Below are positions 2,643 to 59,044 of a DNA stretch of 64,000 nt, piece after piece. The stretch covers positions 65,726 through 129,725 of the forward strand of contig CAZYUB010000001.1 of NCBI GenBank assembly GCA_964650515.1. The letters are read 5' to 3'. A model generated the notes under the pieces. The model worked only from the letters and a program-made list of their open reading frames with translations. It did no database searches and had not been told where the DNA came from. Within the stretch, counting starts at the first letter, position 1. Each line of letters begins with the position of its first letter. The position numbers were made by a program, and so were the translations under genes. The DNA is from an uncultured Planctomycetia bacterium. GTDB lineage: Bacteria > Omnitrophota > Gorgyraeia > Pluralincolimonadales > Pluralincolimonadaceae.

Positions 2643-3257
2643 ATGAAAAACAGGATGAGGCCCATATGCCTGTTATTTGTTTTTTTAGGGGCGCTTCTAT
2701 CCGTCCTCCCGGCGGCTGACGCCGGCGAACTCATGATAGCGAGTTTTGAAGGGAACGGGCGGAGCGACCTCGGCACCGACATAGGCGCGTGGAATTCCAA
2801 CCCGCTTGATACCTCGCAGGGCTGCACGATCGAGATGAAAAAACTCTACGGCGTGCTCGGAAAACCGACCGAAGAGAGCCGCGTGATGATGATATCCTAT
2901 GATGTCGCGGCGAGCGGCCCGGCCTTCAACGGCATATACATAAAACTCAACGATACCGACCTTACCCCTTACGACCGGATGAAGATGGCCATAAAAGGGG
3001 ACGCCGGAAAGGGGTTCACGACAAAGTTCAAGCTAGAGATGAAGAACAATAAGGGCGAGCGGGTCGTCTTCATAATAAAAGGGATTACCGCCGAATGGCA
3101 GGAAGTCACGGTGCCGATGCAGGGGCTGAAAGACCTCGGCTCCATAACCGACTGGACTAAGATGAGGGAGATCGTCTTCACCTTTGACGACATGACCTGC
3201 GATTACAAGGAAGGCGTCCTTTACGTAGACAACATAACTTTCTCGTCAGACAAGTAG
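2643..3257 (+). CDS. secreted beta-sandwich protein, paralog A (CBM11/CIA30-like fold suspected)
   Basis: AAGGAG RBS sits 7 nt upstream of the start. Sec signal peptide is MKNRMRPICLLFVFLGALLSVLPAADA. C-terminal motif REIVFTFDD...GVLYVDNITF is shared with the downstream paralog. Confidence 0.6.
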   Translation: MKNRMRPICLLFVFLGALLSVLPAADAGELMIASFEGNGRSDLGTDIGAWNSNPLDTSQGCTIEMKKLYGVLGKPTEESRVMMISYDVAASGPAFNGIYIKLNDTDLTPYDRMKMAIKGDAGKGFTTKFKLEMKNNKGERVVFIIKGITAEWQEVTVPMQGLKDLGSITDWTKMREIVFTFDDMTCDYKEGVLYVDNITFSSDK

Positions 3258-3265
3258 GCCCCGCC

Positions 3266-3937
3266 ATGCGCACCGGGACAATAATATTTCTTGTATCGTC
3301 CGTAATTTCAGCGGCGCCTGCGGTTGCCGCTGATGAGGCCGTGAAGTCGTTCATGGTGGATAATTACGACGCCGGGCAGATGTTCAACCTGCTCGGAGGC
3401 AAGACGCAGGGATACGAAGAAGCGGGAGTCAAATGCATACCGACGTTCACAAAGGACCCCGGAGAGAGGCACGGCGATAGCGGTGCTTCGCTGCGGCTGG
3501 ATTTCGACGTGAGCAAAGGCGCCGGTTTTTCATATTACTGGTCTACGCTGCTTGCGGGCAGGAAGACCGACGTTGCCGGACAAGCGATAGAGCTTATGGC
3601 GTTCAGCGACCTCAGGGGTTATGGCTTCCTTTCGTTCTGGTACAGGGACCCCGCCGGAGGCGCGCTCTTTACGATCGAGATGCACCAGGACACCGACGGG
3701 GACGGCTCGTACATAATGGGCGTGGACAAGATATCGTCGGTGGACATAGCCCAGTATATAGACAAGCTTGCAGCGGGAAAATGGCAGAAGGTCGAAATAC
3801 CGCTCTCAAGGTTCTCGAATATAAACGACTGGAGCAGGGTGCTCGATATAGTATTCGTTTTCAGGAACGGCCGCGGCCTTAATAAGGGGACGGTATTCAT
3901 AGACGACCTGTCCTTCGTCAAATACGCCGCAAGATGA
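3266..3937 (+). CDS. secreted beta-sandwich protein, paralog B
   Basis: Signal peptide is MRTGTIIFLVSSVISAAPAVAADEA. C-terminal motif WSRVLDIVFVFRNG...GTVFIDDLSF aligns with paralog A. The two genes sit in tandem 9 nt apart. Confidence 0.6.
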   Translation: MRTGTIIFLVSSVISAAPAVAADEAVKSFMVDNYDAGQMFNLLGGKTQGYEEAGVKCIPTFTKDPGERHGDSGASLRLDFDVSKGAGFSYYWSTLLAGRKTDVAGQAIELMAFSDLRGYGFLSFWYRDPAGGALFTIEMHQDTDGDGSYIMGVDKISSVDIAQYIDKLAAGKWQKVEIPLSRFSNINDWSRVLDIVFVFRNGRGLNKGTVFIDDLSFVKYAAR

Positions 3938-6859: not shown

Positions 6860-7552
6860 ATGCCAACAGGCACACTGCATGTAGTCGCGACGCCGATAGG
6901 CAACCTCAAGGACATCACGTTCAGGGCTATCGAGACCCTTAAGGGCGTCGACCTCATAGCGGCGGAAGACACCCGCCACACTAAGATACTTACCGCGCAT
7001 TACGGGATAACAACCCCGCTTACGAGCTATTTCGAGCACAACCAGGTGACCAAGGGCGAACACCTTATAGGGCTGCTGAAGGAAGGCAGGGATATTGCGC
7101 TCGTCTCCGACGCAGGCACGCCGGGCATATCCGATCCAGGCGCGCACATAATAGGCCTTGCGGTCAAGAACGGCATAAGCGTCGTCGGGATACCCGGCCC
7201 GAGCGCGGTGATCATCGGACTCGTCGTATCCGGCATGCCGACCGACAGGTTCATATTCGAGGGGTTCCTCCCGAACAAGTCATCAGCGCGCAGGAAACGC
7301 CTTTCAGAGCTCAAGGACGAGAAGAGGACCGTCGTGCTTTACGAGTCGCCGCACCGCATATCGAAGACGCTTTCCGACATACTGGAGATATTCGGTGATA
7401 TAAAGTTGTCGGTGATGCGCGAGCTTACGAAAAAATTCGAGGAAACCCTGCGTTGCGGCGCGGCGGAAGCCGTCACGCATTTCGAGAAGACGAAGCCGAG
7501 AGGGGAGTTCATGATCGCTTTTAACCCGAAAGAAGGTGCGAGAGATGCCTAA
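6860..7552 (+). CDS. rsmI: 16S rRNA (cytidine1402-2'-O)-methyltransferase
   Basis: GTLHVVATPIGNLKDITFRAIETLKGVDLIAAEDTRHTKILTAHYGI is a typical RsmI/tetrapyrrole-methylase-like N-terminus. Length is 230 aa. Confidence 0.85.
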   Translation: MPTGTLHVVATPIGNLKDITFRAIETLKGVDLIAAEDTRHTKILTAHYGITTPLTSYFEHNQVTKGEHLIGLLKEGRDIALVSDAGTPGISDPGAHIIGLAVKNGISVVGIPGPSAVIIGLVVSGMPTDRFIFEGFLPNKSSARRKRLSELKDEKRTVVLYESPHRISKTLSDILEIFGDIKLSVMRELTKKFEETLRCGAAEAVTHFEKTKPRGEFMIAFNPKEGARDA

Positions 7553-8345
7553 GATACATCCTACGGCGATAATCGGCGGTAAGGCCGTGCTCGGTGACGT
7601 CGATATCGGGCCTTACGCGGTGATCGAGGACGGGGCGGCCATAGGCGACGGGACCTCGGTATTGGCGCACGCTTATGTCGCCGGCGGCACTACTATCGGG
7701 AAAGATTGCGAAGTCCATATGGGGGCGGTCGTCGGCCACGTCCCGCAGCACCTGAAGTATAAAGGCGCCAGGACATACCTGAAGATAGGCGACAGGAATA
7801 TCATACGCGAATACTGCAGCATACACCGCGGGTTCGAGGAAGGCTCGGCGACTGTCATAGGCGACGATAACCTCTTCATGGGCTTTTCGCATATCGCGCA
7901 CGACTGCCATATCGGGAACAATACCGTCGTATGCAACGGAGCGCTCGTTGCGGGGCACGTCACCGTCGAGGACGGCGCGTTCGTATCGGGGAACGTGACT
8001 ATACACCAGTTCGTGAAGATTGGGACTCTGGCGATGATAGGCGGCCTGGCCCGCGTGAACAAGGATGTTGTGCCGTATACGCTGATAGAAGGGGATTCCG
8101 AGGCCTGCTCCCTGAACACCGTCGGGATAAAACGCTCGGGCATAGGCGAGGAAGCCGCGGCGCAGATAAAGAAGATATACAGGCTCATCTACCGCTCGGG
8201 GCTGAACGTGAGCCAGGCGCTCGCGGAGGCCGCGAAACTCGGCGCGCTCTCCCCCGAGGCGGAAAAAATGGTTAGTTTCATTAAATCTTCGGAGCGTGGG
8301 ATATGCAAACACAGAAGACCGGCATCGAGCGAAGAAGATATATAA
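7536..8345 (+). CDS. lpxA: acyl-ACP--UDP-N-acetylglucosamine O-acyltransferase
   Basis: IHPTAIIGGKA... shows hexapeptide repeats. LKYKGARTYLKIGDRNIIRE, HIAHDCHIGN and the C-terminal KKIYRLIYRSGLN align with E. coli LpxA. Confidence 0.9.
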   Translation: MREMPKIHPTAIIGGKAVLGDVDIGPYAVIEDGAAIGDGTSVLAHAYVAGGTTIGKDCEVHMGAVVGHVPQHLKYKGARTYLKIGDRNIIREYCSIHRGFEEGSATVIGDDNLFMGFSHIAHDCHIGNNTVVCNGALVAGHVTVEDGAFVSGNVTIHQFVKIGTLAMIGGLARVNKDVVPYTLIEGDSEACSLNTVGIKRSGIGEEAAAQIKKIYRLIYRSGLNVSQALAEAAKLGALSPEAEKMVSFIKSSERGICKHRRPASSEEDI

Positions 8346-10399
8346 GGTTAAGCACGGTATTTCCCGTCGAATTCGAGGTAATAAGCCTCGACGACAAGGA
8401 AGTATTCTGCGAGTTCCACCAGGCCTTCACGCGCGACGTAAGCGAAGGGGGCATGTGCCTAGAGATAAACAACCTCAAAGACGACCTTGCCGAAAAGCTT
8501 AACAGGAAATCCGCGAAACTCCGCCTCCAGATAAACATGCCGTTCTCCTCTAAGCCGATCGAAGCGGTAGCGGAGACCGCCTGGATAAAGAAGATAAAAG
8601 AACACCATCCCAACAAATACCTCGCCGGCGTCTATTACGAAAAGATCGCGGAAAAAGACAGGCGCGGGATAGTGGGGCACGCCAGGTTCCTTACCTTAAG
8701 GCCGTTCTTCGTCGGCGCCGCCATAATCCTTCTGGCCGTCTCAGTCGCGCTGACAAGGATGGAACTCGCGAAGAAAGAGGCGATGCGCAAGGAGACGGAG
8801 AAGAAGCTAGCGCTTATAGAATCCGAAAGGTCGAAACTTGCGCAGGTCCTCGACGAGCTCAGGACGAACAGGGGCGAACTCGAATCGAAGATCAAGAGGT
8901 TTGAGCAGGAGAAGATGGACCTCCAGAGGAAGCTCGAAGAGGCGAAGGCAGAGGCGATGCAGAAGCCCGAGGAGATCGCAAAACTTGAGACGGAACTGGC
9001 CAAGGCAAAAGAAAGGACCGACGCGCTCAACGCCGAACTCGGCAAGGTCGCCGATTCGAGAAAAGCGCTTGAAGAACAGCTTAAGGTCCTGGAAGAGATA
9101 AAGGCCTCGAAGCCGGTCAAAGTCACGCTTGCCGCGGGAGGCATAATCGTAGGAAAGGTCATACTTGAGACGGCTGATTCCGTAAGGGTCGAGGTCCCGA
9201 CAGGCGTCATAACACTTAAGAGGGAGCTTATATCATCGATGGCCACCCCGAGCGAGGAAGAGGTCGCCGAGCTGGCCCGCGAAAGGATAAGGCTAGAGCT
9301 TAGGGCCAAGGAGGTAGAGAAGCAGAGGGACCTCGAGCGCAGGAGAGCGGAAGAGAGGGAGAAGACCGAGAAGGTGATAACGAAGAAGACACCCGGGGAG
9401 CCCGACCAGCTCGTATCGAGGAAGATCACCGACCGCGGGGTCATCATCAGGGACGGGAGGATATATTCCGACGGCTCGCTCTTCTTCATAAAGGGCGTCG
9501 CGTACGGCGTGAGCGCGCCGGGCCTGCCGCCCGGGGTCGACGGGTGTTTTTCGAAGATACCTTTATCGGTCTTTGAGAATGATTTCAGGATGATGAAGGG
9601 TGCCGGGATAAACACGATAAGGACATACGAGCCGTTCCCGGACGCGCTGCTCGACCTTGCCGAGAAATATGACCTGAAGATCATAGAGCAGGTGGTATAT
9701 CCGTCCGCATACACCGACTATTCCTCCGAGATCGAGCTGAAGGCCCTCAAGAAGATAGCGGCCGAGGCCGTGAAGAAGCACAAGAACAGGAAATGTATAC
9801 TGATGTGGTCGATATGGAACGACGCGCCGTTCTGCTACGACGAGCCGGGCAACCCCGTCCCCCGCTACGGGTTCGAGGCCGTGAATAAGTTCATGAAGGA
9901 GATATATCTTGCCGTCAAAGCCGCCGACAAGAGCCGACCGGTAACGGCGGCGAACATACTGAAGGTAAAGGGCTATGACCTCGGGTTCGATTTCCTCGAC
10001 GTGATAGGGTGCAACGCGTATATCGGAGGCCACGGTTTCAACTGGCGCGGCAGGGAAGAGGCGGTGAAGTCGGTCAAGGAGATGAAGGAGATATCCAGGA
10101 AGTACAAGAAGCCGGTCATAATTACCGAGACCGGGTTCAGCACTTTCGTAAAGAAGGACTCCCAGGACAAGGCGCTCGGCACGCAGATAAAAAGCGCCGA
10201 GGACGACCTTGCCGGCATCGTGATATTCGAATGGACGGACGAATGGTGGAAGGGCGGGAACCCGTCGGTCCAGGACAAGCATATAGAGGAGTACTGGGGC
10301 ATATTGACCTGGGACCGGAAGCCGAAACCCGGCTTCGAGACGGTCTCGAAGCTGTTCAATTCCATACCGACGGATTCGCTCGGATACTCGCCGCAATAG
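8303..10399 (+). CDS. PilZ domain - TM helix - coiled coil - TIM-barrel glycoside-hydrolase-like fusion protein
   Basis: PilZ motifs RRRYIR and DVSEGG sit in the first 60 aa. A single hydrophobic helix FFVGAAIILLAVSVALT follows, then about 180 aa of K/E/L-rich heptads. The C-terminal region of about 330 aa has a b/a pattern with IITETGF and MWSIWNDAPF strands reminiscent of clan GH-A enzymes. Confidence 0.75.
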   Translation: MQTQKTGIERRRYIRLSTVFPVEFEVISLDDKEVFCEFHQAFTRDVSEGGMCLEINNLKDDLAEKLNRKSAKLRLQINMPFSSKPIEAVAETAWIKKIKEHHPNKYLAGVYYEKIAEKDRRGIVGHARFLTLRPFFVGAAIILLAVSVALTRMELAKKEAMRKETEKKLALIESERSKLAQVLDELRTNRGELESKIKRFEQEKMDLQRKLEEAKAEAMQKPEEIAKLETELAKAKERTDALNAELGKVADSRKALEEQLKVLEEIKASKPVKVTLAAGGIIVGKVILETADSVRVEVPTGVITLKRELISSMATPSEEEVAELARERIRLELRAKEVEKQRDLERRRAEEREKTEKVITKKTPGEPDQLVSRKITDRGVIIRDGRIYSDGSLFFIKGVAYGVSAPGLPPGVDGCFSKIPLSVFENDFRMMKGAGINTIRTYEPFPDALLDLAEKYDLKIIEQVVYPSAYTDYSSEIELKALKKIAAEAVKKHKNRKCILMWSIWNDAPFCYDEPGNPVPRYGFEAVNKFMKEIYLAVKAADKSRPVTAANILKVKGYDLGFDFLDVIGCNAYIGGHGFNWRGREEAVKSVKEMKEISRKYKKPVIITETGFSTFVKKDSQDKALGTQIKSAEDDLAGIVIFEWTDEWWKGGNPSVQDKHIEEYWGILTWDRKPKPGFETVSKLFNSIPTDSLGYSPQ

Positions 10400-10418: not shown

Positions 10419-10447
10419 TTGACAAACAGGTATGCCCATGCTATCCT
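10419..10447 (+). promoter_or_regulatory. sigma70-like promoter of the pyr operon (TTGACA, 17 nt spacer, TATCCT)
   Basis: TTGACA at 10419-10424 and TATCCT at 10442-10447. The promoter sits in the 186 nt gap between the upstream gene and pyrR. Confidence 0.45.
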
Positions 10448-10453
10448 TTACCA

Positions 10454-10575
10454 CTGGAACCTTTTAACCCGGCCCGGTGAGGCCGGAAAAGGAGAAGAAG
10501 ATGTACCATAATACGGAGAATACTATATTGTGCCTGTTTTCGGCGTATGTGCCGGGGACAGGCATTTGTATTTGT
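10454..10575 (+). promoter_or_regulatory. PyrR-binding loop plus intrinsic terminator (pyr attenuator)
   Basis: CCCGGUGAGGCCGGAAAAGGAGAAG at 10469-10500 closely matches the B. subtilis PyrR binding-loop consensus UCCAGAGAGGCUGAGAAGGAU. Downstream hairpin TGCCTGT...ACAGGCA at 10531-10564 is followed by a T-rich tract, TTTGTATTTGT. Confidence 0.55.
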
Positions 10576-28700: not shown

Positions 28701-29846
28701 TCATTTTATCGTCTCAAGGACAAGCTTTTCGTTCGCGACGTCCATCTTGATATTGAAATTGCTGAGGAACGACATCCCGAGCAGCCCGTCTATGCCGTGG
28801 CCCGGGGGGTTTTCCGAAACAGCGACCGGCACGTCGTAGGCGGTCGAATTCCCGACTTTTATGCTCTTGACTATTATTACGTCGCTTTTCGTGGTGCTTC
28901 CGTCCGCGAGCGTGAAATTCACGCCTTCTATCGTATCGTTCGGGTTCGTCTCTATCTTTTGCGCTATCTCGCGCGATATCACGACTATAGACGCGCCCGT
29001 GTCGACGGCCAGCAGGCAGGTCGTGCCGCCGTTTAGTACGGCCTTGACCGTCATGCCGTTCGCCGTTTTTGTCAGCGAGACGGAGTCCCTGTTCAGGCCC
29101 TTCTCGATATCAAGGATCGCTTTTGACGCTATGCCCGCGTAGAGGGCCTCTTCCTCGCTGATGCCGCGGCTCTTCATGCCTTCGACTTTCTTATCGAACT
29201 CAAGCCGGAAATTCCCGACGGCATTCCCGTATTCGGTGATCGCCTTCCAGTAATTACGCTCGTATTCCGGAACCTTCATGCTCAACGCGTTTAGGTCCTC
29301 CACGATAGAAGCGATCTGGCTGTTCAGGGAGTTCATCTCCGTTATATGGCGGTTATAGCTCATTATGTCGCTCTGCGGATCCATCCCGGCAACCTCACCG
29401 TTGACCGCGTCGAATTTCACCCTGAGGTTCTTATATTTCTTCTTTTTTGACAATAAGGATGACTTCGCGTTATCGAGCAGTTTTTTCGCGTCGTCCGCGG
29501 CCTTCCTGCCCGCTATCAGTTCGCGGAGCTGCCTGGCCGTGTCCGCGAAGGATTCCGGGACGAGCGCGCCCTTCTCGATGGCTTTCTTCCTGGCGGCGGC
29601 CTCTATGGCGGCATTTTCCTTTTCGGAGGCCTTTTCGATGGATTCGATCTGGTCCCTGGATATCTTCATCGTGCCGGTGCCTATCGATAACGTCACGCGG
29701 TAGGGGTCCTCGGCCCTTATGACCCCCTTGAGCACGCCTTTGTTCTTAAGATAGACGGTATCGGCATGCGCCGCGGAGTGAAGCCGCGGCACAACCGCCG
29801 GCGCGAAGGCCAGCAGTATGGCTATAGCAAGTTTTCTTGTCACCAT
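28701..29846 (-). CDS. secreted retropepsin-like (clan AA) aspartic protease with coiled-coil region
   Basis: True start is placed at ATG 29844-29846, giving MVTRKLAIAILLAFAPAVVPRLHSAAHA as signal peptide. The central region is a K/E/A-rich coiled coil. The C-terminus has LLAVDTGAS (DTG motif) and GLLGMSFL, typical of the TIGR02281-like bacterial retropepsins. The upstream part of the track ORF overlaps nuoN and is rejected. Confidence 0.7.
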   Translation of the reverse strand: MVTRKLAIAILLAFAPAVVPRLHSAAHADTVYLKNKGVLKGVIRAEDPYRVTLSIGTGTMKISRDQIESIEKASEKENAAIEAAARKKAIEKGALVPESFADTARQLRELIAGRKAADDAKKLLDNAKSSLLSKKKKYKNLRVKFDAVNGEVAGMDPQSDIMSYNRHITEMNSLNSQIASIVEDLNALSMKVPEYERNYWKAITEYGNAVGNFRLEFDKKVEGMKSRGISEEEALYAGIASKAILDIEKGLNRDSVSLTKTANGMTVKAVLNGGTTCLLAVDTGASIVVISREIAQKIETNPNDTIEGVNFTLADGSTTKSDVIIVKSIKVGNSTAYDVPVAVSENPPGHGIDGLLGMSFLSNFNIKMDVANEKLVLETIK

Positions 29847-29848
29847 AT

Positions 29849-31270
29849 TTACAGTAAGGAGCTTCCTATCCACCTGAGGAACGGTACCGGGAAGAGGCCC
29901 GCTACTAGCACGCCTGCCAGCGCGATGACCAGCGCGAGCTTTACCGATAACGGCTTCGGTTCCCTGACCATAGTGTGAGGTTCGTTCAGGTACATGAATT
30001 TGACGACTTTTACGTAATAAAAGACCGCCAATACGCTGTTGATGACGCCGGCGACCGCTAGCATATAGTATTTCGACTGTATCGCGGCGGCAAAGACGAG
30101 GAACTTTCCGAAGAAACCCGCGAGAGGGGGTATGCCCGCAAGCGAGAGGAGGAATACCGTCAGTATGAACGCGAGGACGGGTTCCCGCTTCGAGAGCCCG
30201 CTGTATTCCTCGATATGGTCGCTCTTGATCGAGTTCGAGACGAGGACGACGCACCCGAACGCGCCTATATTCATCAGCACATACGCCAGAAGGTAATACA
30301 TGACCGCCTGTATGCCGAGGGACGTCCCGACGACGAAACCTATCAGAATATAGCCGGCCTGCGCTATCGAAGAATAACCGAGCATGCGCTTGATGTCTTC
30401 CTGGTTGATAGCGATGATATTTCCGGCGGTCATCGTGATTATCGCGACCGCCTGCGCTATATCCGCCCAGCCGGTGAACATCGGGAAGAAATTCTTCAGG
30501 AAGACCCTGACGAGGATCGCGAAACCTATCGCCTTGGGCCCGGCGGACAGGAATGCGGTTATCGGCGTCGGCGCGCCCTGGTAGGCGTCAGGCACCCACA
30601 TATGGAACGGGACGAGCGCGCATTTGAAACTAAGCCCGGCGAAGACCAGCAGCAGCGCCACCGCGGCGGCGAGCGAATTGGAGCCCCCGGCGTTTATAGC
30701 GCCCGATATCGCGGAAAGGTCCGTCGTGCCGAAAAGGCCGTATATAAACGATATACCGTAGAGCATAACCCCGGTCGCGAGCGCGCCGAACAGGAAATAC
30801 TTAAGCGCGGCTTCGCTCGAGAACGGGTTGCGTTTCAGGAAAGCGGTAAGCATATACGAGATCAGTGATATCGCCTCAAGCGATATGTATATCATCATCA
30901 GGTTGTTCGAGGATGCGGCTACCATCATGGCCACTGCGGCCGCGAGCAGCAGGAAATAGTATTCGCCGGCGTCCTCATCGGAGAACGGCCTGTACCCGAG
31001 CGATACCAGTATCACGAGCCCTGTGACAAGCAGGGAGATCTCCTTGAAGAATTCCGAGAACGTATCGTTCAGCAGCATGTTGGAGAAGAGGGGGCCCGCC
31101 GCCTCGTAACTGTGCGGCATGCATAATATGGAAAGCAGTATGGCCGCGAGGCAGAACACGCCGAGGACGGCCCTCTTTTTTACAAAGAGGCCCGCTATCA
31201 GCACCGCGACCGCCGATGCCGCAAGCAGCAGTTCGGGAAAAAAGAATTTTACGCTTTCCGCGACGCTCAA
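29849..31270 (-). CDS. nuoN: NADH-quinone oxidoreductase subunit N (TTG start inferred)
   Basis: Polytopic antiporter-like subunit. Start is set at the TTG preceded by GGGGGA, just inside the nuoM stop region. The more upstream part of the track ORF overlaps nuoM. Confidence 0.8.
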   Translation of the reverse strand: MSVAESVKFFFPELLLAASAVAVLIAGLFVKKRAVLGVFCLAAILLSILCMPHSYEAAGPLFSNMLLNDTFSEFFKEISLLVTGLVILVSLGYRPFSDEDAGEYYFLLLAAAVAMMVAASSNNLMMIYISLEAISLISYMLTAFLKRNPFSSEAALKYFLFGALATGVMLYGISFIYGLFGTTDLSAISGAINAGGSNSLAAAVALLLVFAGLSFKCALVPFHMWVPDAYQGAPTPITAFLSAGPKAIGFAILVRVFLKNFFPMFTGWADIAQAVAIITMTAGNIIAINQEDIKRMLGYSSIAQAGYILIGFVVGTSLGIQAVMYYLLAYVLMNIGAFGCVVLVSNSIKSDHIEEYSGLSKREPVLAFILTVFLLSLAGIPPLAGFFGKFLVFAAAIQSKYYMLAVAGVINSVLAVFYYVKVVKFMYLNEPHTMVREPKPLSVKLALVIALAGVLVAGLFPVPFLRWIGSSLL

Positions 31271-40707: not shown

Positions 40708-41433
40708 GTGGGTAAGAAAGCGTTATCGGTTGTTTTCCTTATTTCGGCTATGCTTGCTTGCGGGAACACCCGCGCAGACGTTACCCTGCAGAATGCAGGG
40801 TTCGAATCCTGGACCGGAGGGTCCCCTGACGGGTGGAATGTATCTACGGTATCCGCCGGCGCAGCAGCGGGCGCGTATTCAATAAGCGATTCCGGAGTTT
40901 ACGTGAATGACGGGGCAAAAAGCGGCATGATCTATTTCTTTTCAAGGCCCAATTTCGGCAGTTTTAACATCGATACCTATATATTTCAGCGCTTGTCCGG
41001 GGCAGAGGCGGGGCAGGCATATACATTCGGTATCAGCAAACGCTGTTCCGTCGGCAGCAACTTTTCGGGCTTAGGAAGCGCTTCGATGGCCGTGGGTATA
41101 GATCCTTACGGAGGCACTGACCCGCTTTCTTCAAATATTATATGGGGCGTCGCCGATTCGACCGGGCTATACGGCCAAGACGCCGCTTTCGTCCCCCTTA
41201 CATCCGAAGCGGTCGCGCAGGGGCCGGGGATAACAGTGTTCCTGAAGAGCAATACACTTGCCCAAACATATCCGGCGGGAGGAAGCGGCCAACCGTACAG
41301 CACGGACCTGTACACGTACGCCTATTTTGATTCGGCGCAAGTCAATCCGGTTCCCGAACCGGCGACGATGCTTCTTTTCAGCGCGGGGCTCGGAGGATTA
41401 CTGATATCGAAGAGGAAAAAGCTTGAGAAATAA
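40708..41433 (+). CDS. PEP-CTERM sorting-domain protein (GTG start)
   Basis: Signal peptide present. C-terminal motif NPVPEPATMLLFSAGLGGLLISKRKK is VPEP plus TM plus a basic tail. The roughly 190 aa body is shared with the C-half of the next gene. Confidence 0.8.
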   Translation: MGKKALSVVFLISAMLACGNTRADVTLQNAGFESWTGGSPDGWNVSTVSAGAAAGAYSISDSGVYVNDGAKSGMIYFFSRPNFGSFNIDTYIFQRLSGAEAGQAYTFGISKRCSVGSNFSGLGSASMAVGIDPYGGTDPLSSNIIWGVADSTGLYGQDAAFVPLTSEAVAQGPGITVFLKSNTLAQTYPAGGSGQPYSTDLYTYAYFDSAQVNPVPEPATMLLFSAGLGGLLISKRKKLEK

Positions 41434-42967
41434 ATTAATAATCATAACAGCGGCGCTATTGTGCATTTCCGGAAACGCGCAAGCGCTGGATATAAGCGGC
41501 TACGACGCGGACCTCTATGACCGTTTCGTCGCAGGCACTTACGGCACCGATAACCCGATAGCCAATTCTGACTTCATCGGCGCTTCTTACGACTGGTCAG
41601 GCGTCGGATGGCAGACGGACCAGAACTGGAAGAGCGTGGCGATGGTCTCCGCGCAGAACTTCGTATGCGCGAACCATTACAGGGTGCCGGTAGGGAGCAC
41701 CGTCTCGTTCTTTAACGCGGACGGGCAGCTCAAGACCTATACCGTGCAGGGTTACTCCACGTTCGACTACCAGCTTACGCAGAACGGCAATCCACTCTTC
41801 GATAACAACGGCAACCCTTATATGTGCATACCGGACCTCGCTCTCGGCTGGCTTACAGAGGCGATCCCGGTTTCGGACGGCATCACGGCCTATTCGGTGC
41901 TTGACGCCGATGATTATTCCACCTCGTGGTTCGATACCGGCTGGTACGTCGGCAAGGACATCCTTTCGTACGGCTGGACCGCGAAAGCAGGGAACAATAC
42001 GATAGATAACTTCCAGAATGTCGCCACCACCGGTTTTTCCAATCCGACTAACGGCACGACGACCGCTGTTTACAGCTACGACAGGAACAATGACCCGCAG
42101 GGGCAGGCGGGGGCGCAGGGTGGCGACTCAGGAAGCCCGAGCTTCATGGTATGGGACGGGCAGCTGACCATCGCGGGAACACATTTCGCCGTATCTAACG
42201 GCACCGAGGCCTGGAATACCTACGATTCTTTCGTGCCGTATTATGCCGACGCTATCGATGCCGCGATGAGTTCCGCCGGGTATTCCCTTAACAGGATAAC
42301 TATAGATGTCTTTCCGACGAAGCTGAAGAACGCGGGTTTCGAGAGCGTGAGCTGGAATACCTGCCAGCCCAATGACTGGAACTACCGGGAAACTTCGTCC
42401 GGCGGCTTCTTCTTCGACACATCCTATTACAGCGGCGGGAACAAAAGATCAGGCACGTATTCTGTCGGGATGGGCGAGGAGATAAATGACGCGGGTTCGT
42501 TCGAGCATGACGGCTCTTTCAACCAGACGCTGGCGGGCTCGACCGCGGGTACGACTTACGGATTCTCGTTCTGGTTCCAGAGCGTAAATTATATACCGGC
42601 GGATATGCTGGCATCCGATGCGACCGTGATGGTGGCCGCCGGCATCGACCCGACGGGCGGTTCCGATCCCGATTCGCCCGATATAATATGGAACATGGTC
42701 GCGCTGACGCCCGAGCAGTTCACCGCCGCCTGGCAGCAGATGATAGTGACCGCGCAGTCCAACGGCACGCCGATGACGTTCTTCATCCGCAGGCACCTGT
42801 TATGCAACATATCCGAAGCCGATATCGCGGCCGGCAGGTATTGGAGCTCGTCTATATACGTGGACGACGCTTCGATATTCATCGTGCCCGAGCCCGCGAC
42901 TTTCCTGATGCTCATGGCGGGGCTTTCCGGCCTCCGGTTTTTCTTCCCAAGAAGGCGCCCTTCGTAG
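41423..42967 (+). CDS. PEP-CTERM protein with N-terminal trypsin-like (S1) domain
   Basis: Signal peptide present. Candidate triad residues are H85 in FVCANHY, D138 in IPDLALGWL and S236 in GGDSGSPS. The spacings 53 and 98 resemble those of the S1 fold. C-terminal domain is homologous to the previous gene. VPEPATFLMLMAGLSGL...RRR is the PEP-CTERM anchor. Confidence 0.7.
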   Translation: MRNKLIIITAALLCISGNAQALDISGYDADLYDRFVAGTYGTDNPIANSDFIGASYDWSGVGWQTDQNWKSVAMVSAQNFVCANHYRVPVGSTVSFFNADGQLKTYTVQGYSTFDYQLTQNGNPLFDNNGNPYMCIPDLALGWLTEAIPVSDGITAYSVLDADDYSTSWFDTGWYVGKDILSYGWTAKAGNNTIDNFQNVATTGFSNPTNGTTTAVYSYDRNNDPQGQAGAQGGDSGSPSFMVWDGQLTIAGTHFAVSNGTEAWNTYDSFVPYYADAIDAAMSSAGYSLNRITIDVFPTKLKNAGFESVSWNTCQPNDWNYRETSSGGFFFDTSYYSGGNKRSGTYSVGMGEEINDAGSFEHDGSFNQTLAGSTAGTTYGFSFWFQSVNYIPADMLASDATVMVAAGIDPTGGSDPDSPDIIWNMVALTPEQFTAAWQQMIVTAQSNGTPMTFFIRRHLLCNISEADIAAGRYWSSSIYVDDASIFIVPEPATFLMLMAGLSGLRFFFPRRRPS

Positions 42968-56911: not shown

Positions 56912-59044
56912 ATGCTTATATTTCGATGTTCTTCTCAGCAAGCGCAATCGCGCTTGCCATTTTGTTTTATAGCCTATATAATACAGCTGATGAACCCTGC
57001 CAACGTGAGCAATTTAGACAGAGCCGCGGTAGTCAGGAAGATACCGCTTTTTTCGGACCTGCCGCAGGTGGCGCAGAAGCTTATAGAAGAGCGCTGCTAC
57101 ATAGCGGAGTACAGGAAGGGCCATATCCTGTACAGGGAAGGCCTTCCGTCAGATTCTTTTTATTGTATCGTCTCCGGCCGTGCGAAAGTGTTCGTGAAGA
57201 CGCCTTCGGGCGAGGAGAAGACCCTCATATTCCTGCACAGGGGCGATTACGTCGGGATCGTGTCCCTGCTGACCAACGAGCCCCATTCCGCTTCGGTGCA
57301 GATGGTCAACGATTCCGTAGTCCTCAGGATAGACAAGAAGGATTTCGGCCAGCTTCTTAACGATGTCCCGCAACTCGCGCTTAAGCTCAGCGAATCGCTT
57401 TCGCGCCGCCTGAAAAGGAAAGAATCCAGGGCCAAGGCCGTATTCGAATCCACGATAATATCGGTCTATGGGCCCGCCAAGAAGACCGGCAGGACGATGT
57501 ATTCGGTGAACCTCGCGATAGCGCTCGCTTACGAGACGCGCAAAAAGGTCATGCTGATAGATATGAGCGCGACGGGCAAAGAATGCTCGTCGATGCTGCG
57601 CATGGAAGGCGAACTCCCCTGCGTCGGCATGGAGTCCGGCATGCTCAGTTACGAGGACGTGAAGGACAAGATGATCAAGTATGAGGCCGGGGGCATATTC
57701 CTGCTTAACGCCGCCTGCGGCCCGTCATCGCGCATAGACTCAGGCACGGTGATATCACTGCTCAGTTCGATAGCCGCGGAATTCAATTATATTGTCGTGG
57801 ATATGCCCGCGGAGATGGACAAGCCGATATATTCCGTATTGACCCAATCCGACCTGATACATATCGTCACCGATTCCGGGGAGCATAATCTCAGGTCCAC
57901 CGGACGGCTCATAGAGGAGCTCAGGAAGACGGTAAAGGACCCCGACGCGACGATAAAGACGATAATAAACGAATTCGTCATGACAAAGACATTCGAGGAG
58001 GAGATCAAGCTTCTCGGGCACAAGGCGTACGCGACATTGCCGGACCTTGGTATGCTTGCGGGAATGATGGCAGCGGGCCTGCCGCCGGTCCTCGCGGTGC
58101 CGGAATGCCTCTATTCGAGGTCGGTGCGCAGGATCGCCAGGGAGATAGGCAGGATACTCGTGGGCCTCGCGCTCGGTTCAGGCGCGGCGCTCGGCCTTGT
58201 CCATATAGGGGTGCTGAAAGTCCTCGAGAAAGAGAAGATACCGATAGATTTTATCGCGGGGACCTCGATCGGCGCGGTCGTAGCCGCGTTCTGGGCGTCG
58301 GGCATGGAAGCGGCCGAGCTCGAAAAGGTCGCGATGAGGTTCAAGGACAGGAAGATGCTGCTTTCGCTCGCGGACTTCTCGCTGATGCCTCTGCAGGGTT
58401 TCCTTAACGGGAACAACCTCAAGAAACTTTACCGTGAGTACCTCGGAAGGAAGACGTTCCACGACACGCATACGCCGCTCAAGATAGTCGCGAACACGCT
58501 GCGCTCGCGCGAAAACATAATATTCGACGAGGGAAGCCTGGTCGACGCGGTCCGCGCGTCGAGCTCGATACCCGCGATAATAAAGCCGGTCCGTTACGGC
58601 GATGATTTCCTGATAGACGGCGGGACGTTCGATCCGGTGCCGATAGACGTGCTCATGAAAGGCGGCGCAAAGAAGATCATAGCGGTCAACTGCCTGCCGA
58701 GCCAGGACGAGATGAAGAAGATATTCGACGAGTTCGAGCAGAAACGCCGCAAGGAAGAGGCAAAACTCGCGAACGGCTCGATATTCGCGCGCATATCGTA
58801 TAATTTCAATAACTGGGTGCGCAGGACATTCGCGCCGAACGTATTCGACGTGATGATGAACACCTCGCTCGCCATGCAGTATGTGCTGGCCGAGGAGTCG
58901 TCGCGCGAAGCGGACTGCGTAATACACCCCATACTCACGAACGCGGTCTGGTTCGAGCTGTATAAGGCGGAAGAGCTTATCAAGCGCGGTGAGGAGGAGA
59001 CACGCAGGATGCTCCCCCAGATAAAAGCGCTTATCGAAGAATAA
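56912..59044 (+). CDS. cNMP-binding domain - degenerate ParA/CpaE-like domain - patatin-like phospholipase
   Basis: cNMP-binding beta-barrel at about aa 40-160. Central MinD/ParA-like segment without an intact Walker A. Patatin motifs GLALGSGAALG (GxGxxG), GTSIGAVV (GxSxG) and IDGGTFD (DGG). Confidence 0.75.
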   Translation: MLIFRCSSQQAQSRLPFCFIAYIIQLMNPANVSNLDRAAVVRKIPLFSDLPQVAQKLIEERCYIAEYRKGHILYREGLPSDSFYCIVSGRAKVFVKTPSGEEKTLIFLHRGDYVGIVSLLTNEPHSASVQMVNDSVVLRIDKKDFGQLLNDVPQLALKLSESLSRRLKRKESRAKAVFESTIISVYGPAKKTGRTMYSVNLAIALAYETRKKVMLIDMSATGKECSSMLRMEGELPCVGMESGMLSYEDVKDKMIKYEAGGIFLLNAACGPSSRIDSGTVISLLSSIAAEFNYIVVDMPAEMDKPIYSVLTQSDLIHIVTDSGEHNLRSTGRLIEELRKTVKDPDATIKTIINEFVMTKTFEEEIKLLGHKAYATLPDLGMLAGMMAAGLPPVLAVPECLYSRSVRRIAREIGRILVGLALGSGAALGLVHIGVLKVLEKEKIPIDFIAGTSIGAVVAAFWASGMEAAELEKVAMRFKDRKMLLSLADFSLMPLQGFLNGNNLKKLYREYLGRKTFHDTHTPLKIVANTLRSRENIIFDEGSLVDAVRASSSIPAIIKPVRYGDDFLIDGGTFDPVPIDVLMKGGAKKIIAVNCLPSQDEMKKIFDEFEQKRRKEEAKLANGSIFARISYNFNNWVRRTFAPNVFDVMMNTSLAMQYVLAEESSREADCVIHPILTNAVWFELYKAEELIKRGEEETRRMLPQIKALIEE

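Follow-up and report, generated by a model that had tools for sequence, protein, structure and literature searches.

What does a bacterium gain from one polypeptide that carries a receptor-like domain for an intracellular second messenger at one end and a polysaccharide-cleaving enzyme fold at the other, and could the two ends communicate across a membrane? This question is raised by an open reading frame (ORF) at positions 8303..10399 of the 64,000-nucleotide stretch of DNA analysed here (the window; positions 65,726 to 129,725 of contig CAZYUB010000001.1, assembly GCA_964650515.1, from an uncultured bacterium placed by GTDB in the Omnitrophota), in which all features lie on the (+) strand unless otherwise indicated. 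The ORF encodes a protein of 698 amino acids (aa) that consists, in this order, of a PilZ domain, a transmembrane (TM) helix, a coiled coil, a beta-domain, a charged helix and a barrel of glycoside hydrolase (GH) clan GH-A, and this domain architecture is secure. The protein is best understood, with a probability that we put at about 0.55, as a membrane-tethered PilZ sensor of cyclic di-guanosine monophosphate (c-di-GMP) that is linked through its TM helix and a stalk to a periplasmic barrel acting on beta-1,3-glucan, so that signalling would proceed from the inside of the cell outwards. An earlier sequence-only reading, made without database searches, had delimited the same ORF and quoted four motifs within it, all of which are found in their places (viz. 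RRRYIR, aa 10-15; DVSEGG, aa 45-50; MWSIWNDAPF, aa 501-510; and IITETGF, aa 606-612).

Our search of 5.8 billion proteins has identified 46 full-length homologs of this protein (37-100% identity), all of them in Candidatus Omnitrophota-type metagenome assemblies. Because these homologs retain R11, R15, G50, an Asp or Asn at position 45, N506, D507 and E609 throughout or nearly throughout, the ORF represents a conserved gene family and a chance pattern is excluded. The genome of the nearest species (JBAZJG010000004.1) shows 94% identity across the N-terminal module. In public annotation the homologs appear either as 'glycoside hydrolase family 2 TIM barrel-domain containing protein' or as 'hypothetical'. 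A precomputed assignment to PF23649 was disregarded, as it consists of a weak match to the FKBP15 coiled coil only.

The PilZ domain is a beta-barrel spanning aa 9-124 (8327..8674) and it is recognized by Pfam (PF07238) with a score of 25.2 bits against a gathering cut-off of 22.5 (E=2.2e-5, aa 9-124); the corresponding match of another family member (P0059) has an E-value of 2.6e-10. Both halves of the c-di-GMP binding signature that had been read from the sequence alone are thus borne out by the Pfam match and by their conservation. The RRxxxR motif (R10 R11 R12 Y I R15; 8330..8347) has R11 and R15 invariant in 46/46 homologs, and the D/NxSxxG motif (D45 V S47 E G G50; 8435..8452) has G50 invariant in 46/46, with position 45 occupied by Asp in 34 homologs and by Asn in the other 12; S47 is likewise kept in 34/46, the remaining 12 having Gly, Asn or Cys. 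When the N-terminal half of the protein (aa 1-375) was modelled by AlphaFold2 from 43 sequences, a six-stranded beta-barrel was obtained with its strands at aa 21-114 (predicted local distance difference test score, pLDDT, of ~90 for aa 14-114), followed by a C-terminal alpha-helix from aa 117. The top PDB matches of this PilZ model in Foldseek are the PilZ domains of MotI, YcgR, MrkH, PlzA, BcsA, PP4397 and Alg44, several of which are c-di-GMP complexes, with E-values of 4e-5 to 1e-3 for those of MotI/YpfA (DgrA), YcgR and MrkH. A profile of 24 family sequences matches MotI/YpfA (5vx6) with an E-value of 0.0028 and with both motifs in register; this profile was required, as a search of the PDB with the single PilZ sequence gave nothing relevant. 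The domain is therefore likely to bind c-di-GMP, as judged from its motifs and its predicted fold.

A single TM helix (aa ~134-153; 8702..8761) follows and is continuous with the C-terminal helix of the PilZ domain, the AlphaFold2 model having one unbroken helix from aa 117 to 218 that passes through the TM segment with pLDDT >90. It is the sole hydrophobic segment of the protein, containing the only 19-residue stretches with Kyte-Doolittle (KD) values >1.6 (core aa ~134-152), and its flanks carry a net charge of +3 on the N-terminal side and of 0 on the C-terminal side, which fits an N-in orientation by the positive-inside rule and agrees with the single TM helix and N-in topology that had been suggested earlier. 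Because a PilZ domain must meet c-di-GMP in the cytoplasm, and because barrel relatives that lack PilZ carry signal peptides (P0051, P0052 and the glucan-cluster paralogs described below), we infer an N-in bitopic protein of the inner membrane with its barrel in the periplasm.

The periplasmic stalk is made up of three distinct elements. The about 180 aa that had been taken for coiled coil do begin as such, with a heptad coiled coil of 109 aa (aa 160-268; 8780..9106) that has one break at aa 219-222, and the remainder has proved to be a beta-domain of 47 aa and an E/R/K-rich helix of 40 aa. The 3.5-residue periodicity of the coiled coil has a z-score of 11.4 that was reached by 0/2000 shuffles; Leu, Ile, Val or Met occupy 53-69% of its a and d positions as against 6-10% elsewhere, and two conserved lengths are seen, of 111 aa (25 homologs) and of 122 aa (13 homologs). 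It would presumably be dimeric. The five-strand beta-domain, which is Sm/SH3-like (aa 270-315; 9110..9247), has its modelled strands at aa 272-314 (pLDDT 64-70), finds Hfq-like matches in Foldseek (E ~3e-3), and measures 47 aa in 45/46 homologs; in one relative (P0051) the same domain stands behind a plain signal peptide. The charged helix (aa 318-357; 9254..9373) is 65% Glu, Arg and Lys and lacks heptad periodicity (z=-0.5), and it is probably a single-alpha-helix spacer of the ER/K type. The linker after it varies from 42 to 99 aa among the homologs, and its modelled portion (aa 357-375, where the model ends) has a pLDDT of less than 50.

The C-terminal domain (aa ~380-690; 9440..10372) is a (beta/alpha)8 barrel that by its fold and its nucleophile belongs to clan GH-A, as had been supposed from the sequence. 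Pfam detects in it the Glyco_hydro_2_C TIM barrel (PF02836, aa 421-658; 44 bits vs a cut-off of 21), and a model of aa 360-698 yields an eight-fold beta/alpha barrel with a pLDDT of 88.4 and a predicted template modelling score of 0.90. The two strands put forward earlier as catalytic were correctly chosen, MWSIWN being beta4 and IITETG being beta7. D507 and E609 stand at the pair of catalytic positions by which the clan is defined. E609 lies in beta7 (VIITETG, aa 605-611; codon 10127..10129), aligns both with the nucleophile of human beta-glucuronidase (GUS) and with the Glu that is mutated to Ala in the GH157 variant 9g4n, and is kept in 45/46 homologs. At the acid/base position, W505-N506-D507 (9815..9823) aligns with the N-E of GUS and of the GH157 enzyme 9fz9 at the C-terminal end of beta4, D507 coming directly after that strand (ILMWSIWN, aa 499-506). 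The Asn of the Asn-Glu pair that marks the clan is kept (44/46 homologs), but the next residue is Asp rather than Glu (45/46). Of the expected acid and nucleophile pair, the nucleophile Glu is hence present, while the acid/base is a conserved Asp within a W-N-D motif. We know of no characterised clan GH-A enzyme that has an Asp as its acid/base.

Within the clan, the barrel is scored nearly equally by two families, with E-values for the single sequence of 5e-11 to GH2 and 2.5e-10 to GH157 (9fz9), and for the family profile of 1e-17 and 3e-15, respectively. The GH2 alignments end at about aa 616-631, short of the last part of the barrel, and among solved relatives the GH157 structure 9fz9, at 23% identity, is alone in having an alignment that spans the whole of it. 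GH157 alone also shares both parts of a DxWWKxG plus EExxG signature, present as FEWTDEWWKGGN and HIEEYWG in the query vs ADGWWKGG and EEWFG in 9fz9, although this signature was derived from the alignments of the present analysis and is no CAZy definition.

The W-N-D motif is a property of a wider group of barrels. When 1.84 billion cluster representatives were searched exhaustively by HMMER with the barrel as query, 974 relatives passed E<1e-3, of which 206 also passed E<1e-10 and only 30 passed E<1e-30; the nearest of them share W-N-D, whereas the wider family keeps G-N-E. Of the aligned domains in which the nucleophile Glu is present, N-D occurs in 27 and N-E in 87. The subclade is set apart by W505, D507, G561 and W665 (the 87 canonical relatives having G and E in place of W505 and D507), and the active-site scaffold common to the subclade and the canonical relatives comprises R440, N506, N571, Y573, E609 and D646. 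Barrels of the W-N-D type that are secreted, fused to carbohydrate-binding module family 11 (CBM11) or to tetratricopeptide (TPR) repeats and devoid of a signalling domain, also exist, and the named members of the group come from Auribacterota and 'PVC group' assemblies. These results define a conserved W-N-D subclade of GH157/GH2-like barrels.

Several lines of evidence point to the substrate of the barrel. The family GH157 is an experimentally established family of endo-beta-1,3-glucanases (PMC10229575). An ortholog of the gene (P0043) occupies the same slot after glmS-rsmI-lpxA at another locus and is 63% identical over aa 1-384, after which the two sequences diverge completely; P0043 ends in a GH16 laminarinase domain (E=4e-45 to the top GH16 structures, 4dfs and 3azx) with the catalytic motif EIDIME intact. 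By this comparison, the catalytic module at that locus is exchanged for a different fold of known activity. A sister clade (P0037, P0046 and P0048; ~745 aa, ~40% identity) is found in a gene cluster that is conserved in three unrelated assemblies (L001, L004 and L005). In addition to the PilZ-anchored barrel, this cluster contains a major facilitator superfamily (MFS) transporter, two ATP-binding cassette (ABC) permeases, a TPR protein, a beta-propeller protein, a GlgC-like nucleotidyltransferase, a GH42-type enzyme, a GH157 enzyme (E=4.7e-64 to 9fz9), a GH158-like enzyme (E=3e-10 to 9oro) and a GH161 beta-1,3-glucan phosphorylase (E=1e-222 to 9qqk). The logic of the cluster is catabolic, leading from endo-cleavage outside the cell or in the periplasm through import and phosphorolysis to glucose-1-phosphate and storage. 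N-E is retained in every cluster by both secreted paralogs, the GH157 and the GH158-like enzyme, and the PilZ-anchored copy alone has W-N-D (L001:3130-6996, L004:4980-8834 and L005:4546-8273).

Because of the relation to GH157, the GH16 swap, the glucan cluster of the sister clade and the CBM11 fusions of its relatives, the most favoured substrate of the barrel is beta-1,3-glucan of the laminarin or curdlan type, on which it would probably act as a glucanase or possibly as a transglycosylase. The gene contexts favour the processing or utilization of glucan over the trimming of a biofilm matrix. A protein of a different kind adjoins one of the beta-glucan clusters (L004:19099-22238, (-) strand), namely a multi-domain S8 peptidase/fervidolysin-like protein of >3000 aa.

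The PilZ-TM-coil head is not restricted to barrels of this type. Homologues of the head were collected with an alignment of the PilZ domain only, as a query consisting of aa 1-369 gave 6 matches and was swamped by low-complexity words of the coiled coil. In a scan of one genome per species in GTDB, the N-terminal module was found at 50 loci, nearly all of them labelled Candidatus Omnitrophota. The W-N-D barrel is encoded at 15 of these, and the other 35 encode a protein of ~645-680 aa in which the same head is followed by an unrelated C-terminal domain of ~370 aa (loci L024-L057, e.g. L031:4001-6034 and L032:3980-5932). This third class of domain matched no Pfam family, and it resembles GH15 glucoamylase (TIGR01535, E=1.7e-5) and (alpha/alpha)-barrel structures only remotely. 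The retention of the head on two unrelated catalytic folds at the least, and probably on three, argues that it contributes a function of its own, although the nature of this function is not shown by the retention itself.

The head also occurs without a periplasmic domain, and many Omnitrophota proteins of ~156 aa consist of this PilZ domain and a C-terminal TM anchor alone. In both loci examined for these short proteins (P0252 and P0227; L007:6001-6471 and L008:453-929) they are located directly upstream of tilS-ftsH-folP-dacA, and one full-length member of the family (P0032, locus L002) is situated between tilS and ftsH. At the latter locus, 7 kb upstream of P0032, lies a gene (L002:1-1012, (+) strand) for a GAF-HD-GYP protein in which the HD and the GYP motif are both intact; it is a putative c-di-GMP phosphodiesterase and speaks for turnover of c-di-GMP in the lineage. 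No functional clue was found in the neighbourhoods examined for the third class and for the short PilZ-TM paralogs.

Within the window, the gene order is gyrA, a tRNA, two small genes, a nagA-like gene, glmS, rsmI, lpxA, the PilZ-barrel gene, pyrR-pyrB-pyrC-carAB and further pyr genes. The ORF begins inside lpxA (7536..8345; Hexapep and Acetyltransf_11 domains), which it overlaps by 43 nt. The overlap is consistent with co-transcription of the two genes, in line with the promoter-less spacing noted in the sequence-only reading, and it is conserved in orthologous loci (49 nt in L006 and 25 nt in L003). At a distance of 8 nt ahead of the ATG, still inside lpxA near its 3' end, the sequence reads GGAG (8291..8294), which resembles a Shine-Dalgarno element. 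After the stop codon, ahead of pyrR, there is a sigma70-like promoter match (TTGACA-17-TATCCT with an upstream TG; 10419..10447) that agrees with the consensus at 10/12 positions, which is a consensus match only; because of its location, the PilZ-barrel gene is probably the last of a glmS-rsmI-lpxA unit. A hairpin with a 16-bp stem (10530-10565) overlaps the start of pyrR. An Rfam scan of the window returned only a tRNA, with no PyrR element, riboswitch or leader near the gene.

The remainder of the window contains housekeeping genes (viz. ATP synthase, complex I and transporters) together with a few genes of separate interest. The two small genes between the tRNA (2542-2615) and the nagA-like gene, at 2643-3937 ((+) strand), are a gene of 204 aa that has no Pfam match and a gene of 223 aa that has a weak match to CBM30 (E=4e-4), and a gene of ~200 aa holds the same position in L003 and L006. 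In a protein of 710 aa (56912-59044, (+) strand), a cyclic-nucleotide-binding domain (aa 66-150) is joined to an AAA_31 ATPase-like region and to a patatin-like phospholipase domain (aa 419-581); this protein may be a lipase regulated by cyclic nucleoside monophosphates. A gene at 28704-30254 ((-) strand), between the ATP synthase and complex I blocks, encodes a protein of 517 aa whose C-terminal part holds a retropepsin-like aspartyl protease domain (aa 403-496), and a PEP-CTERM protein of 241 aa, followed by a protein of 514 aa that lacks a Pfam match, is encoded at 40708-42967 ((+) strand).

If the protein is a c-di-GMP sensor joined to a periplasmic glucan-acting barrel, its operation may be envisaged as follows. 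Binding of c-di-GMP by the cytoplasmic PilZ domain would change the pairing or the orientation of two such domains. This change would pass through the continuous run of PilZ helix, TM helix and coiled coil, in which the stalk helices of a dimer would shift or rotate, and the shift would in turn alter the activity, the mutual arrangement and spacing, or the position and reach of the two catalytic domains in the periplasm, which the beta-domain and the stiff ER/K helix, together with the rest of the stalk, would hold out from the membrane. The C-terminal helix of PilZ domains is known to mediate dimerisation in Alg44 and contacts with partners in other PilZ proteins (10.1101/814665). Gating across the membrane by c-di-GMP is plausible. 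Several observations weigh against this interpretation. Between the lone TM helix and the remote barrel lie a beta-domain and a flexible linker, which makes it hard to picture how the helix could gate the barrel, and the AlphaFold2 model, being of a monomer, gives no information on the dimer. The Ser of D/NxSxxG is replaced in 12/46 homologs, and in the third class this position is mostly Gly, which could weaken the binding of c-di-GMP. A motif scan, together with Pfam searches of ~40 window genes, found no GGDEF, EAL or HD-GYP gene in the window, and the neighbourhood of the query itself, with glmS, rsmI, lpxA and the pyr operon, is of a housekeeping kind that gives no direct clue to the substrate. 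The similarity of the barrel to GH157 is no stronger than that to GH2 glucuronidases, and since its canonical acid/base Glu is an Asp, it might be slow, transglycosylating or non-catalytic.

The coupling between the two ends of the protein is also the point on which other explanations turn. The linker before the barrel is poorly predicted and variable in length, which argues against rigid coupling and keeps alive an explanation in which the glucanase is constitutive in the periplasm and PilZ serves as a c-di-GMP-dependent module for docking or localisation (at a transporter, the cell pole or a contact site) or for the control of stability. Many PilZ proteins do act through protein-protein contacts of their C-terminal helix (10.1101/814665), the ~156-aa proteins indicate that the head can work without a periplasmic domain, and the sister-clade gene adjoins genes for ABC and MFS transporters. 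However, a single helix of conserved length runs unbroken from PilZ through the membrane into the coiled coil and has the appearance of an element for transmission rather than of a tether, and the same head is kept with three different periplasmic domains; we regard this explanation as improbable. Slightly better placed, though in our estimate still unlikely, is the model proposed in the sequence-only reading, by which the enzyme trims or releases a beta-glucan made by the cell itself (an exopolysaccharide, a capsule or a periplasmic glucan) in the manner of BcsZ, PslG, PelA and AlgL, with c-di-GMP tying its activity to the biofilm state or to remodelling of the envelope. Control by c-di-GMP and PilZ is classically tied to the production of exopolysaccharides, as in Alg44 and BcsA (10.1101/814665), and the clade of the query has the gene in a conserved arrangement with two genes for envelope precursors, namely lpxA, which it overlaps, and glmS, which it follows. 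Against this, genes for a polysaccharide synthase, of the glycosyltransferase family 2 (GT2) type or another, or for polysaccharide export were found neither in the window (Pfam searches of ~40 of its genes) nor in the loci whose genes were examined, and the one informative context, that of the sister clade, is catabolic, with its secreted endo-glucanases, importers, cytoplasmic GH161 phosphorylase and GlgC-like protein. The proposed role in matrix trimming or biofilm dispersal thus receives no support from the gene contexts.

That the PilZ copy is the only one in each glucan cluster to depart from N-E could also indicate that the W-N-D barrel has ceased to be an enzyme and serves as a sensor of beta-glucan, relaying the presence of a periplasmic ligand inwards to change what PilZ binds and so regulating the cluster, for which no recognisable transcription factor is encoded in the stretches read. 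This seems very improbable to us, as a pure binding module would not need the nucleophile Glu that is kept in 45/46 homologs, or D507 and the other conserved residues of the active site. Further, the GH16 domain that has been swapped in at the orthologous locus retains an intact catalytic motif, W-N-D barrels are also secreted with CBM11 or TPR repeats where no signalling domain accompanies them, and PilZ is known as a receiver and not as an output domain. The inside-out reading, with c-di-GMP sensed in the cytoplasm and beta-1,3-glucan acted upon in the periplasm, may also be extended to the whole set of proteins that carry the head. More tentatively, and with appreciably less confidence than for the query protein, the head can be viewed as an Omnitrophota-specific inside-out transducer through which c-di-GMP would directly switch periplasmic glycan-cleaving enzymes of three unrelated catalytic folds (viz. 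the GH157-like W-N-D barrel, the GH16 beta-jelly-roll and a GH15-like (alpha/alpha)6 domain outside every described family). If this is true, the state of attachment or feeding would be coupled to the digestion of beta-glucan from a host, prey or particle in bacteria that are ultra-small and possibly host-dependent.

Of the systems that are already known, the one closest in layout is Alg44, the alginate co-polymerase of Pseudomonas aeruginosa, in which the polypeptide likewise opens with a cytoplasmic PilZ domain bearing RxxxR and DxSxxG motifs, one TM helix comes next and the periplasmic part is rich in helices; its PilZ domain (4rt0) is among the fold matches of the query. The likeness to Alg44 that had been noted from the sequence holds in general terms for the N-terminal half of the protein. 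The periplasmic region of Alg44 resembles HlyD/membrane-fusion proteins (MFP) and carries no enzyme, whereas the query has no HlyD/MFP domain at E<=1 in Pfam or NCBIfam and ends in a GH barrel; Alg44 also partners the GT2 polymerase Alg8 within the alg operon, whereas no synthase was found near any member of the query family whose locus was examined, the window and loci L001-L006 having yielded no glycosyltransferase. In mechanism alone, the proposed behaviour recalls LapD-LapG of Pseudomonas fluorescens, in which a cytoplasmic c-di-GMP receptor controls the activity of a periplasmic hydrolase across the inner membrane from the inside out. The two systems are not homologous. LapD has degenerate EAL and GGDEF domains, a HAMP domain and two TM helices, and it sequesters a separate protease, LapG; in the query the receptor is a PilZ domain with one TM helix and a coiled coil, the hydrolase is a glycosidase that is covalently fused to it, and Pfam and NCBIfam detect no degenerate GGDEF-EAL, HAMP or LapG-binding domain.

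The catalytic and the sensory ends of the protein each have counterparts in other settings. The barrel shares with the GH157 endo-beta-1,3-glucanases (LaGH157 9fz9; BcellWH2_01931) the (beta/alpha)8 fold of clan GH-A, the DxWWKxG plus EExxG signature and the Glu of beta7, and differs from them in having W-N-D where GH157 has x-N-E and in an identity of only 23%; the GH157 enzymes are secreted or surface proteins of Bacteroidota and are not anchored by PilZ (PMC10229575). The GH2 beta-glucuronidases and beta-galacturonidases (1bhg, 6u7j and 6ncw) have a Glu as acid/base and possess N-terminal sugar-binding and Ig-like domains, whereas in the query Pfam finds neither Glyco_hydro_2_N nor Glyco_hydro_2 and matches PF02836 only. 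As to the sensory end, MotI/YpfA (DgrA), YcgR and MrkH have the closest solved PilZ domains by profile and fold, with their motifs in register; these proteins are soluble, reside in the cytoplasm and have the flagellar motor or DNA as their target, none of them being anchored in a membrane or joined to a periplasmic enzyme. A c-di-GMP receptor and a periplasmic polysaccharide-cleaving enzyme do occur in one system where the PilZ domain of BcsA is accompanied by BcsZ, and likewise with PslG, PelA and AlgL, and the query unites both in one polypeptide. In systems of the BcsA/BcsZ type, PilZ gates a cytoplasmic glycosyltransferase and the hydrolase is separate and unregulated, whereas no synthase was found near the query and the contexts of its family point to the degradation of beta-1,3-glucan.

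The PilZ fusions that are known control machines of the cytoplasm or embedded in the membrane, such as cellulose synthase, alginate polymerase, flagellar motors, chemoreceptors and transcription factors, and c-di-GMP has been tied to the making of polysaccharide. In a searchable literature of 8 million full-text papers, we found no description of an extracytoplasmic polysaccharide-degrading enzyme linked to PilZ; PilZ is there associated with glucanases only in synthase operons, and a survey of PilZ architectures makes no mention of hydrolase fusions. To our knowledge, the Omnitrophota are a widespread phylum with no cultured representatives, and the family described here offers a handle on their carbohydrate use and c-di-GMP signalling. 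The interchangeable catalytic domains on one head would make it a single-polypeptide system for signalling by a second messenger across a membrane. Set beside the systems considered above, the protein is a PilZ receptor with a new class of output beyond the membrane and, if our interpretation is correct, one in which the receptor is wired through the membrane to an enzyme that degrades polysaccharide outside the cytoplasm.

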